DNA of 64,000 nucleotides from Octopus vulgaris (lineage: Eukaryota), in contig OX597819.1 in NCBI GenBank assembly GCA_951406725.2, forward strand, positions 40,486,001 through 40,550,000, written 5' to 3'. Within the stretch, counting starts at the first letter, position 1. Each line of letters begins with the position of its first letter. The notes beneath the pieces were generated by a model, which saw nothing but the letters and a program-made list of their open reading frames with translations, was not told the DNA's origin and made no database searches. Positions 16,075 to 35,749 of the stretch are shown in pieces. The position numbers and the translations under genes are program-made.

Positions 16075-17126
16075 ATGGACTTTAAGTCCCCGCAGAAACA
16101 CAAAAGAACCACAACACAGGATTTTAATCGGAAGGATGGGCTAAAAAAAGATGATGATGATGGAGTTTTGGCCGCCACGGCAGCAACAGCCCCGTGTTTT
16201 GTGTGTGGGGCACAGGCGGCGGAGCAGTATATTGACAGTAAGTCGACAAATAACATAAATAGACCTACAGATGTTAAGATTCAGACAAAAAGTTTTTGTT
16301 CCGCATGTAGGAATTTTTACCAGCATAGTACCTTAGGAGATGCACACTTAACTTATGTCTGTATTACTCAGAGTCAGATTAACAGACGTATATCATTGAG
16401 GAATTCCAATTTGTTGACTTCGAAATCACCAGTTTCTGGATTATGTGTTATCAAAACAGATATTGTAAATAAATGCCGTGCTTGTTGGTATCTCAAATGC
16501 ATCTCTTTTGGACTCAATGAAGCTTTGGAAATCGCGAATGTTAACCAATCTAAACATCAGAAAGACAGACCTCCGAATACCAACAATAACAACAAAGATC
16601 CCAGTGATGATATAATTCGGAACAAAAACGATTCATGTTCGTCAGAAAAGGAATCCAAGAATCCAAATTTATCTGCCTCGTCAAATGAAAGTTCAAGTGT
16701 AGATGTGGCAACCAAGAATAAACAGACACAACGCCAGCAATATCAGCCCGTTCGTTCAGACTCTTCCGAGAAAACGGCTATCTCTCAATCAAAACCGAAA
16801 CTATCTACAATGCAAAAGCAACTCGCAGGATCGACTCAAATGGATAATTCTCACACTACTAAAAGCTCAATCCAAGGAAATGGGCCGTCGGTGTCTACAG
16901 TATCATCCGGAGTAGCCTCTTTGCAACTCGCACAAGGGAAGTCGTTAAAAGTTTTTAATCAACAACAGAAATCAGTGAAACAATTAAAACCAATTGCTCG
17001 AACTCAAGGGATAACAAAAACTACCGCAGTTCAACCTCAAACAAAAACGTCTGTTTCCAATCAGACGAAAAGTTCGGTTACGAGAGAGATTACCAATAAT
17101 CCTGTTTCCTCAAAGGAATCACAAAA
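16075..17126 (+). CDS. Coding exon 1 of a multi-DBD nuclear-receptor-like gene; contains degenerate DBD1 (16195-16515) with insertions in both fingers
   Basis: ATG at 16075. Motifs CFVC...CSACRNFY...C...C...CRACWYLKCISFGL. Donor AA|gtaagc at 17127 (phase 2), matching the phase of the next exon. An upstream non-coding exon cannot be excluded. Confidence 0.82.
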
Positions 17127-32900: not shown

Positions 32901-35749
32901 GTAGATTTGGAAACAGCACAAGCCAAGCCACTGCGTAAACGAGGCCGTCCACGAAAGATAAAATCAACACTACTTAGCACTGAAGTTACACCAACCTGTA
33001 AGCAAGATTCTATCTGTAAAGAAAACAGTAAACAACCATCTACTGTGTCAGAGAGCACCACTGAAATTTCGTCTGTCCCTTCTGTTACTATAGTCGCAGA
33101 ATTCAGCGAGAGAAATAAAGTCAGAAATAAAGAAGATAGTAGCATGACTGAAAGCAGAGTTGGAAACAAAACTGATACTATTTTCATTGGGACTAGCTTG
33201 TGTAGTGTTTGTGGAGATGTGTCTCATGGATTACATTATGGTATTATTTCATGTTCAAGCTGCCGTAGTTTCTTTGCACAAAGCACTGACTCCAAAATTG
33301 GCTGTAAATATGAAGTATGTAATAAGTCATGCATAATCAACAGTGTAACACGCCGATTCTGTCGATATTGTTGGTTACAGAAGTGTCTACAGGCAGGAAT
33401 GATGAAAGGCACCACTAAACGAGGACGGCCACCAAAACTTAGACCCCAAACTAATGAAACTGAAACTGTTAGCAAACAGAAGGATTTGACTAGTGAAAAT
33501 GAGGTTTCTATTCCTGAAGATCAGATTGAGACAAGTTCAGAAGCAGCAGTTTCAGCACTTCATAAAGAGTCAATTCAAAATAATGAAAGCACTGTGAACA
33601 ATAGTGATCCAGTCATGACTGACAATGACACCAATACTGAAGATGATCAAGTTGATAGTTTTGATGTATCATCTGATGTTATCAAAGAAGGGAACAATGA
33701 TGAAAACAATGATGATGATGAAGTAAATCTGAAAGCAAAGCCTTCCAGTTCAACACAGACTGGAATATCAGTTGATGAAGAATCTAATGAAATGAACTTA
33801 GAACAAGTCACTAACAGATCTTCCGTTTCTCAAGAGAAGATGCTACGTGAGACAAGTACAGAGAAGATAGTCAGTGAGCAATCATCTATTGTTTGCATTG
33901 ATTTAGATAGTAATTTAAATAGCACTGGGACAGCTAATCTCACTGAAACCGAACCAATGGCTGTTGATAATGATTCTGATTCACCTTTAATTATTGAAAG
34001 TGTTCCACACCAGAGTGATAACAACAAAAGTGATGTCGGTAATTCCCAGAATCCAAACTCTACTAGCAGTCAAGAATGTTTCTGTAAAGTATGCGGTGAC
34101 TTGGCATCAGGAATTCACTTTGGCATAGAAACCTGCTGGTCATGTACTATTTTCTTTAAGCAGAGTACTGACTCACGAACGACCAAAAAATATAAGTGCC
34201 ATAACAAAAACTGTTGTGTCACACCTGATAACTACGAACGTTGTTCTTATTGTTGGTTTCAAAAGTGCTTGCTTGTTGGCATGTCAAAAATGTTAATTCC
34301 CACAAATCAAAGCCAAAGTGGAACTGGTCAATTCTTGGAGAGCTATACTTCAAATACTGACCGATCTGTCTCTTCAGGAATCCACCAGGTAAAGAGTGGT
34401 AAGCTATTGCCTACTGTTGCAGATTCTTCAAATGCTGAAAGAAGTAAAGTAGCAAGCACATCCCTTGCATCTGTAGCAACTTCCATCAGTAGCACAAACA
34501 GCATAGTTTCTGGTGCAACTTGTACAACTACAGATGTTGCTTGCAGTGTTTCTCCTGTTGAAAGAGAAGTCAGCACAGTTAGTACATTTAATCCTAGAAG
34601 TCAAACTGTATCAGTAATTACCACAACACCATTACAGACCAATGCAAACACTAATACTACCAGCACACCTAATACAGTTTCTTTGCAGCCACAGTTATCA
34701 AATAATAAACAACCTACAAACACTGTAGATGCTGTTCAAAGTAGACTTCACACTTCACCTGTAAAATCTGTGTTAGTTGCTCCTAAGCCTACCTTACCTC
34801 AGGGACAGACACAAACTCATTCTGAACTGATATGCAGTGTTTGTGATGATACTGCAATTGGTGTTCGGTATGGAGTACAGACATGTCGTAATTGTTTGTG
34901 TTTCTTTCGAACTGTACTAAATGGGAGAATACCTACTGAAAAGGATCATGCAGACGGTAACTGTTTTATTAATAAAGCTACTACCAACCGGTGTCGATTC
35001 TGCTGGTACCAAAAATGTCTTTCTGTTGGGATGAGTGATACTCTACAAATGAAAAAGCAGCAAACATTAATGGCTACAAACAGACTCTCAGCACCTGAAC
35101 AGGATTGCAATGCCAACAGTTCCAACGTTTGTGACAAAACTAATCCTATACCAACTCCTAGTAATAATTCAGAGATTATTAACAAGCTTTCAGGATTATC
35201 TATGACCACATCTTCAGAAGTACAAATGCTGCCTGTTACATCAAGCAAATCGGGTTCCACTTGTCCTACAGTATCTCAGACCAAAGACCTAAGTTCCAAC
35301 ATGAGGAACACAACAAATGAATCACCATCAGTGACTACTAATCTAAGCAAGGATGTTGCTAAGTTATGTAAAGTCTGTGGGGATGTCTCGTTTGTTTCTC
35401 ATTATGGCATTGCATCTTGTTTGAACTGCAGTGTCTTTTTCCGACGCAGTTTGGACAAAAGACTACATCGTGCATATAAATGCCTCAACAAGGATTGTTT
35501 AATCAGTCGTACCAGTCGTAGTCGCTGTTATTACTGCTGGTTCCAGAAATGCGTGGGTGTTGGTATGTCCTACAAGGTTAAGCGTAAACTACGTCATCAG
35601 AAAGAAAAGTCAAGTGATCAAGCAGAAGTGCCACAGTCACTGTTATCAACTCCTAATCAAGATGCTGTTAATCAAAATTCTAAGAACAGCAACAGTGGAA
35701 ACAATACCCAACCAATTTCAAATCAGAATAAAAGTCTTGTGTCTGATGG
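26909..35749 (+). CDS. Coding exon 2 (8,841 bp): nine NR-type C4 DBDs (DBD2-10), two AT-hooks, coiled coils, Ser/Thr-rich linkers
   Basis: Uninterrupted frame. Acceptor tgttgcag|G at 26908/9 completes AA+G=Lys. Donor GG|gtaagt at 35750. DBDs (CxxC-x13-CxxC...C-C...CxxCW-x2-KC-x3-G[ML]) at 26964-27164, 27378-27578, 28947-29150, 29406-29618, 30879-31079, 33201-33401, 34083-34283, 34833-35033, 35367-35567. Confidence 0.95.

Follow-up and report, generated by a model that had tools for sequence, protein, structure and literature searches.

The window, a stretch of 64,000 nucleotides from the Octopus vulgaris genome, carries on its plus strand a gene encoding 14 C4 double-finger domains of the nuclear receptor (NR) DNA-binding domain type (DBD1-14). 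Its exons have GT-AG borders and join into an 11,288-nt frame without stops, with 1+9+1+1+1+1 matches to Pfam PF00105 in exons 1-6. Coding exon 1 (16075..17126, from an ATG shared with O. sinensis XP_029638073.2 to the donor) holds DBD1 (16195-16518), and the giant exon 2 (26909..35749, 8,841 nt) holds nine domains between low-complexity linkers: DBD2 (26958..27167, P-box CPDCVL), DBD3 (27372..27581, P-box CPECEV), DBD4 (28941..29153), DBD5 (29400..29621), DBD6 (30873..31082), DBD7 (33195..33440), DBD8 (34077..34286), DBD9 (34827..35036) and DBD10 (35361..35570). Two motifs that we take to be AT-hook-like lie in the same exon, KRGRPRK at 32931..32960 and KRGRPPK, following DBD7, at 33411-33440. 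Exons 3 (37748..38105), 4 (38728..39053), 5 (41515..41784) and 6 (43093..43533) contain one domain each, DBD11 to DBD14. Four read runs, guessed to be RNA or of a kind not stated, were compared with the locus, and contigs from three of them start matching at 26909 and end at 35749. Thirteen of the 14 domains pass the curated PF00105 cut-off, and the two long inserts of DBD1 bring it just below the threshold (20.7 vs 21.1 bits). When scored against the zinc-ligand patterns C-x2-C-x13-C-x2-C and C-x5-C-x9-C-x2-C, Cys 1-4, 7 and 8 are invariant and the D-box loop is shorter in most domains; the exceptions are His at the sixth Cys of DBD2 and the fifth of DBD9, and inserts in DBD1 and DBD5. The residues EIYCG are common to DBD5 and DBD13.

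The ten domains of exons 1-2 end in CxxCW, followed by Y, F or L and then xKC, and the four of exons 3-6 in CxxCR, as the sequence-only reading had described and as the codons and PF00105 matches confirm; its amplification of the CW type inside the giant exon does not cover DBD1, which sits in exon 1. Every CW codon is TGG (16486, 27135, 27549, 29121, 29589, 31050, 33372, 34254, 35004 and 35538), while the CR codons of DBD11-14 are CGG (37971, a single step from TGG), CGC (38905), CGT (41741) and AGG (43313). Exon 2 has only 13 Trp among 2,947 residues, nine of them at the CxxCW site, and W is one of 12 invariant columns in DBD1-10, although DBD2-10 share a mean pairwise identity of 42%. Judged from these sequences, the clustering of Trp at the site is not a matter of chance. 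A sequencing or assembly error was dismissed as its source, since W is found in ten of ten domains in O. sinensis and three of three in O. bimaculoides; A-to-I editing back to Arg was dismissed by reasoning only, as TGG contains no A.

The Arg was said to be nearly invariant elsewhere, and this holds: outside the gene, the genome has 51 PF00105 matches, 30 of which include the second finger, and all 30 read CxxCR, and Arg was also present in 229 of the 239 non-coleoid domains parsed from a search biased towards CW. Across the whole genome, a tight codon pattern for CW matched eight times, always in exon 2, with no match in the reversed control. CW is also uncommon in ordinary NRs, W occurring in 2 of 122 canonical non-coleoid domains. 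Degenerate DBDs of unrelated multi-DBD proteins keep Arg in 110 of 117 cases and have W in three, no more often than the canonical ones (p=0.68). CW as a general result of P-box decay is therefore not supported, and P-box loss alone does not demand Trp. Sporadic CW was seen in five unrelated proteins with several DBDs, among them one of Caenorhabditis brenneri. The largest DBD count among the 150 best matches from 1.8 billion representatives was six, compared with 14 in the octopus protein. A metagenome scan for CW domains gave 58 pattern matches and none confirmed, the ESM Atlas yielded nothing more specific than generic zf-C4 clusters, and apart from the protein itself a full-length homolog search brought up a single ordinary receptor. 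Neither the gene nor the CW type nor the fusion discussed below was found described in the main text of open-access papers.

The Trp is old. Silent sites between the copies are saturated, with third positions matching no more often than by chance (0.56 observed, 0.57 expected; 0.33 against 0.36), also in the C-terminal helix (0.52 at two-fold and 0.41 at four-fold sites, 49 sites), so recent duplication or gene conversion was discarded as the cause of the common W. Retention in divergent copies, as proposed earlier, is borne out and extends to orthologues: W is kept in all three O. bimaculoides domains available and in the cuttlefish orthologue of DBD2, which is 70% identical. DBD2 and DBD3 are identical to O. 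bimaculoides at 133 of 134 residues, compared with 417 of 457 in the linkers (p=4e-4), and, among the 40 of 534 base differences listed for runs X12 and X14, all five that fall within DBD2 are silent. Octopus and cuttlefish-type orthologous domains are 70-73% identical, with surface residues kept as well as the core, and coleoids share conserved recognition helices of a non-canonical type (DBD2, CPDCxLF; DBD3, CPECEVFF, with the CPECEV P-box the same in orthologue P0134). On this evidence, the Trp is under long-term constraint. The most conserved part is DBD14, 88-91% identical to Argonauta and P0008, compared with 68-74% for the lyase.

The history of the CW type is less simple than had been proposed. 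In Octopus, the CW/CR split coincides with exon architecture as claimed, but this is not general, because Argonauta DBD11 (the exon-3 orthologue, 73% identical, support 100/92) is CW and its DBD12 is CF, where Octopus has R in both. The domain phylogeny suggested as a check was run. A single clade of all W-bearing domains was rejected (p-AU 0.016 and 0.017), against the claim that CW arose once, while a single origin of the ten Octopus CW domains (p-AU 0.12), or of the nine in exon 2 (0.38, mixture model), was neither demonstrated nor rejected, and a single origin with one extra change is compatible with the trees (p-AU 0.23 and 0.39). DBD14 forms its own branch, grouping with no parent receptor.

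Other DNA-reading residues are also missing. The P-box Glu/Asp is missing in all 13 domains upstream of DBD14, and the FFxR Arg in nine of the ten CW domains, the exception being DBD10 (FFRR, net charge +9). DBD14 has both, as do all 14 canonical receptors compared from the genome, and the full canonical set (P-box Glu, Lys, FFxR Arg and CxxCR Arg) is found in DBD14 only; DBD1-13 all fail, including the CR domain DBD13 with its degenerate P-box. The median net charge of DBD2-10 is +4 vs +8.5 in the 14 canonical receptors (p=0.003), with +3 in DBD2 and DBD4 and 0 in DBD5. Seven of the ten CW domains retain the phosphate Arg/Lys of the second finger, and most have HYG-like residues. The two-helix double treble-clef fold is predicted for one domain, DBD6, in its AlphaFold2 model (pLDDT 89; TM 0.92 to the RXR DBD); the single-sequence model of DBD2 (pLDDT 41) was uninformative.

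A human disease allele provides a precedent. NR2E3 R104W abolishes DNA binding while nuclear location and expression remain normal, with a dimer signal of 173.5% of wild type, and the side chain points inward (PMC2757917, PMC2773741). The CRX interaction is also lost (PMC2757917), so Trp is not simply a promoter of protein contacts. As in the octopus CW domains, the change is Arg to Trp in the helix past the second finger, the positions being matched by spacing (R97-x6-R104 in NR2E3, a spacing shared by the octopus NR2E-type exon L024); the human allele is recessive and disease-causing, whereas the octopus Trp is fixed and conserved in ten domains. PPARG R194W would be a second human case, but the literature search did not turn it up and it was not relied on. 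Since NR2E3 R104W keeps expression and dimerisation without DNA binding, the CW domains most likely keep their fold as DNA-blind modules, and they likely cannot bind ordinary receptor response elements. With respect to the selected new role suggested earlier for the Trp, this precedent points to lost DNA binding in a preserved fold.

The array appears to continue into an enzyme, a junction that the sequence-only reading had missed. Exon 6 ends at a phase-2 donor (AT|GTAAGT) that in gene models reaches exon 2 of the genome's only selenocysteine lyase, 32.5 kb away and outside the window (G000:C6:40562094). The lyase has its own first coding exon of 77 nt (59058..59134, plus strand) inside intron 6 of the long isoform, also phase 2 with AT|GTAAGT; its product shares 92% identity with residues 1-26 of O. 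bimaculoides lyase P0006. The fusion, with a conserved spacer, is seen in gene models from three octopod species (CAI9724068.1, XP_029638073.2 and GAB1611135.1) and in P0008, whose short spliced contig of 2,578 nt reads in a single frame from DBD13 and DBD14 through the complete lyase, a span of >50 kb in the O. vulgaris genome. Another contig extends 2,673 letters beyond exon 2; the predicted distance to the lyase stop is 2,659. No PF00104 ligand-binding domain (LBD) was found in P0004, P0007 or P0008, and none of the non-coleoid matches among the 150 best has a lyase domain. The enzyme matches selenocysteine lyase across the whole domain (E=4e-122) and is closer to SCLY than to NFS1/IscS (411 bits to rat SCLY vs 178 to NFS1), and the motifs EHDS, TIVGHKFYGP and ACHS, which cover the PLP Lys and the catalytic Cys, are intact in all four sequences checked. 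The array is thus likely spliced onto the lyase as a long isoform, with a lyase that is apparently catalytically intact.

In a scenario to which we give an even chance, the CW domains are old, conserved DBD copies that lost base reading, likely folded and DNA-blind, and likely serve as interaction modules on the lyase long isoform. In a coleoid ancestor, the lone lyase gene would have acquired an intronless NR1-like DBD exon, the ancestor of DBD14, as an alternative exon upstream, spliced from a phase-2 donor resembling that of the native first exon. The DBD would then have duplicated repeatedly, upstream copies shedding the P-box Glu and FFxR Arg, and Arg-to-Trp, a single-base change from CGG or AGG, would have been fixed before the octopus/cuttlefish split and held, likely because the inward-pointing Trp fills the core of a domain that can do without its phosphate contact. 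DBD14 and the two AT-hook-like motifs may carry the dimeric PLP enzyme to chromatin; on this coleoid chimeric isoform, which we infer to be nuclear, DBD14 would target DNA and the CW domains would contact proteins. Counting against this scenario, degenerate DBDs elsewhere mostly keep Arg, and DBD11/12 are R, R in Octopus but W, F in Argonauta. The Arg/Lys retained in the second finger and the HYG-like residues also count against it, fitting residual nucleic-acid binding. Alternatively, the CW domains could be re-specified binders that, in the manner of a long zinc-finger array, read non-canonical DNA or RNA by avidity, with Trp reshaping the domain without disabling it, as the retained Arg/Lys, the conserved non-canonical helices, the FFRR and charge of DBD10, the AT-hook-like motifs and the superposition of the modelled fold on DNA-bound DBDs would allow. 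We consider this somewhat unlikely, because the conserved helices have an acidic or hydrophobic character, the net charge of DBD2, 4 and 5 is low, NR2E3 R104W abolishes DNA binding, and linkers of 70 to >700 low-complexity residues separate the domains, compared with 17-22 residues in two-DBD receptors (2DBD-NRs) (Wu and LoVerde, PMC10497141).

The Trp may instead be an entrenched founder change without a new role, which arose in a DNA-blind copy, was duplicated and became co-adapted with the core, leaving the domains as generic folded spacers or zinc stores. The single base from the CGG and AGG codons of DBD11 and DBD14, the swapping of W, F and R at DBD11-12 among octopods, the sporadic CW elsewhere and the compatibility of the trees with a single origin plus one change all agree with it, but the conserved surface residues of single domains point to domain-specific partners, and we rate it as improbable. 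It is highly improbable that the array is a separate DBD-only gene, in whose product the CW domains act, and the lyase fusion a read-through or annotation artefact. The lyase does have its own first exon, the O. bimaculoides entries examined contain either just the lyase or just the N-terminal 708 residues, and an O. vulgaris model with 12 DBDs (CAI9724069.1) ends after DBD12 without the lyase, which counts against the fusion; against these stand the same in-frame junction and spacer in three named octopod species and P0008, and a contig overhang within 14 letters of the predicted fused length. Extending the interaction-module scenario, the lyase would be a dimerising, selenium-sensing LBD substitute in a coleoid, NR-derived transcription factor, with the Trp pseudo-DBDs, a new class, as a ten-unit recruiting platform, an unlikely possibility; the partners would be other receptors or chromatin proteins, making it an animal counterpart of MocR/GabR.

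A Trp that is disabling in human receptors but kept in ten domains offers a natural series on DBDs past DNA reading. The carrier protein is itself unusual, with more than twice the largest DBD count in the best 150 matches and an apparently intact enzyme in place of an LBD. If the fused form acts on chromatin, selenium metabolism would be directly tied to transcription, a coleoid-specific novelty beyond the known C2H2 and protocadherin expansions.

Compared with known systems, the array shares the C4 double finger with NR DBDs (PF00105; RXR, RAR and Rev-erb), the best PDB sequence match being the Rev-erb DBD (1a6y), and DBD14 has the P-box EGCKGFFRR of NR1-type receptors. It differs from them in its 14 copies, each without an intron, ten with W, 13 without a canonical P-box, and in lacking an LBD. 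2DBD-NRs likewise carry DBDs in tandem, a divergent one preceding the canonical EGCKG domain; however, their DBDs number two and come with an LBD, CR is kept in those sampled, the P-boxes of their first DBD (EACKK or LPCKS) occur in none of the 14 octopus domains, and the two sets do not group in trees. Knirps is an example of the DBD-only NR0A receptors. Formally, the array fits NR0A as defined in PMC4070562 (DBD present, LBD absent), a group based on shape and not descent, but it has fourteen DBDs and an enzyme domain in the LBD's place. Multi-DBD proteins, including those of nematodes (P0011, P0012, P0135-P0139 and P0162), have 3-6 tandem DBDs with degenerate P-boxes, but are mostly CR and have at most six domains among the 150 best matches, unlike the octopus array. 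Relative to selenocysteine lyases (rat 3a9x, human 3gzc), the long isoform adds a 3,760-residue DBD array. Bacterial MocR/GabR proteins also fuse a DNA-binding domain to a fold-type-I PLP domain; this is analogy only, as their winged helix (GntR) is not homologous to the C4 finger (PF00105) of the octopus, whose enzyme, unlike theirs, looks catalytically intact.

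A six-frame scan of the window revealed 14 nuclear-receptor C4 domains (DBD1-14) on the + strand, of which ten end in CxxCW (CW type; positions 16486 to 35538, every Trp codon being TGG) and four in CxxCR (CR type; 37971 to 43313), confirming the replacement of Arg by Trp noticed in the sequence-only reading. They lie in an open frame of 11,288 nt from six + strand exons with GT-AG borders: exon 1 holds DBD1, exon 2 (26909-35749, 8,841 nt) holds DBD2-10, and exons 3-6 (exon 6, 43093-43533) hold DBD11, DBD12, DBD13 and DBD14, one per exon. Contigs from three of four sequencing runs, whose kind was guessed to be RNA or not recorded, start to fit the window at 26909 and end at 35749, with more than 1,000 letters upstream and 965-2,673 letters beyond, a pattern as for spliced RNA. 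The encoded protein is already in public databases (Octopus vulgaris CAI9724068.1, O. sinensis XP_029638073.2). CAI9724068.1 starts within DBD1 and treats a poly-Ser stretch (28014-28331) as an intron; a contig of one run, X3, crosses this repeat with matching length, so exon 2 is likely continuous. The region 20800-22400 (intron 1) contains, on the - strand, fragments that we take to resemble a LINE-type retroelement.

The genome has at least 51 other PF00105 matches, and all 30 of those that include the second finger carry CxxCR, showing that CW is not common in ordinary receptors; a tight CW pattern has eight matches genome-wide, all within exon 2. A search of 1.84 billion representatives with a profile of the nine exon-2 domains yielded 10,173 hits. 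Among the best 150, the 146 non-coleoid hits contain 239 domains parsed by a pattern that misses some domains, a sample skewed towards W, with R in 229 and W in five (five proteins, two of them mutual homologues). CW is therefore rare and sporadic outside coleoids, yet not unique. Several unrelated database proteins (P0011, P0012, P0135-P0139, P0142 and P0162, some from Caenorhabditis) have 3-6 degenerate receptor DBDs each; multi-DBD arrays arose more than once. Near-identical intronless DBDs with a CDGCRG P-box occur on different chromosomes of the octopus genome (G000:C2:168278204 and C21:29909897), an apparent duplicate pair.

The Trp is one of 12 invariant columns across the CW domains and is held more strictly than the fifth and sixth zinc ligands. 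Third codon positions among DBD2-10 agree at chance level (two-fold 0.56 vs 0.57 expected; four-fold 0.33 vs 0.36 expected), indicating that the copies are old. In O. bimaculoides, W is kept in all three domains available, and identity is 133/134 in DBD2 and DBD3 vs 417/457 in linkers; for DBD5-10 the comparison covers O. sinensis, which is 99% identical. DBD2 of the N-terminal orthologue from the cuttlefish Acanthosepion pharaonis (Decapodiformes; CAE1274829.1) is 70% identical and of CW type, as are all four domains of another database protein, P0134, which are orthologues of DBD2, DBD3 and probably DBD4 plus one extra domain. The Trp is therefore older than the separation of octopuses and cuttlefish some 270 million years ago, and its invariance despite chance-level third positions, together with its retention in orthologues, supports the suggested selection on it.

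The proposed single origin of the CW type was not established. In trees built without the W column (65-67 columns, with little resolving power), one clade of all W domains was rejected (p-AU 0.016; 0.017 under a mixture model without DBD1), and neither a clade of the ten Octopus CW domains (p-AU 0.12) nor a single origin followed by one further change (0.23, 0.39) was shown or rejected. In one tree DBD14 stood outside a weakly supported group (87/85) of DBD1-13, which the mixture model did not resolve. Argonauta hians GAB1611135.1 holds DBD11-14, with CW in DBD11 and CF in DBD12; its DBD11 pairs with that of Octopus (100/92), whose Arg codon, CGG, is one step from TGG. The coincidence of CW and CR with exon structure thus stands in Octopus only and is not established as a general rule. 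An EIYCG motif and a D-box of normal length are common to DBD5 (CW, 29400-29621) and DBD13 (CR, 41561-41773), a likeness that hints at duplication across the present exon borders.

The human NR2E3 R104W variant, whose side chain points inward from the helix following finger two, abolishes DNA binding while retaining expression and nuclear location, with a dimer signal raised to 173.5% of wild type (PMC2757917, PMC2773741) and loss of CRX binding (PMC2757917). From the published helix description and the R-x6-R spacing in an octopus NR2E-type exon, we infer that R104 is the CxxCR Arg. In the array, the P-box Glu/Asp is absent from all 13 domains upstream of DBD14, and the FFxR Arg is missing in nine of the ten CW domains; the fully canonical DBD14 shows 88-91% conservation in Argonauta and in P0008, a DBD13-DBD14-lyase protein. 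An AlphaFold2 model of DBD6 from a nine-domain alignment (pLDDT 89, TM 0.92 to the RXR DBD) shows that its sequence suits the receptor fold, not that the domain is stable.

The CW domain, a real and conserved variant, is best read as DNA-blind with its fold kept, a prediction that has about an even chance of being right. Simple decay is disfavored, since 110 of the 117 unrelated degenerate DBDs parsed among the best 150 of 10,173 hits have Arg, second-finger Arg/Lys is retained in seven of the ten CW domains, and DBD2 and DBD3 have non-canonical recognition helices that coleoids have conserved; selection acts on these surfaces for some function. DBD2-10 are less basic than the canonical receptors of this genome (median net charge +4 vs +8.5, p=0.003), and putative protein partners fit this charge best, the main rival being binding of non-canonical nucleic acid. 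Among other departures, DBD2 (26958-27167) has His for the sixth Cys (CHC2), as in the cuttlefish orthologue, DBD9 (34827-35036) has His for the fifth, and the D-box loop has four residues, not five, in most domains including DBD14. Both long inserts of DBD1 (16195-16518) recur in the cuttlefish orthologue; the gene model of that orthologue is without the C-terminal CW part of DBD1.

In gene models, exon 6 is followed by a 32.5-kb intron and selenocysteine lyase exons just past the window (G000:C6:40562094-40580926); the genome has no other strong lyase locus, and the catalytic motifs of this one are intact. The lyase's own first coding exon (59058-59134, 77 nt, + strand) lies inside this intron and, like exon 6, ends in phase 2 at AT|GTAAGT. 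The DBD array would be an alternative 5' part of the single selenocysteine lyase gene; in O. vulgaris the junction is predicted by gene models, and a shorter model with 12 DBDs is without the lyase. The fusion also occurs in Argonauta; the 2,578-nt contig that encodes P0008 carries the complete lyase in frame with DBD13 and DBD14, and one contig of run X3 extends 2,673 letters beyond exon 2, the predicted distance to the stop codon of the lyase being 2,659. Among the best 150 of 10,173 hits, no non-coleoid protein has a lyase domain or more than six parsed DBDs. The DBD-array-lyase protein is an unusual, coleoid one, and its array as an alternative 5' part of the lyase gene is arguably a more striking feature than the Trp. 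Searches of the open-access literature, including passages of PMC12513265 and PMC13218726, turned up neither the gene nor the CW type nor the fusion, and the CW variant is apparently undescribed so far.

Domain search found no ligand-binding domain in the array proteins, unlike in a typical nuclear receptor. MocR/GabR offers no more than a works-like analogy for the array-lyase protein. By the published definitions, the array protein is not a 2DBD-NR (PMC10497141) but fits the shape-based definition of NR0A (PMC4070562), and the CHC2 finger described for flatworm HR96b (PMC8363021) parallels the His-for-Cys change of DBD2.
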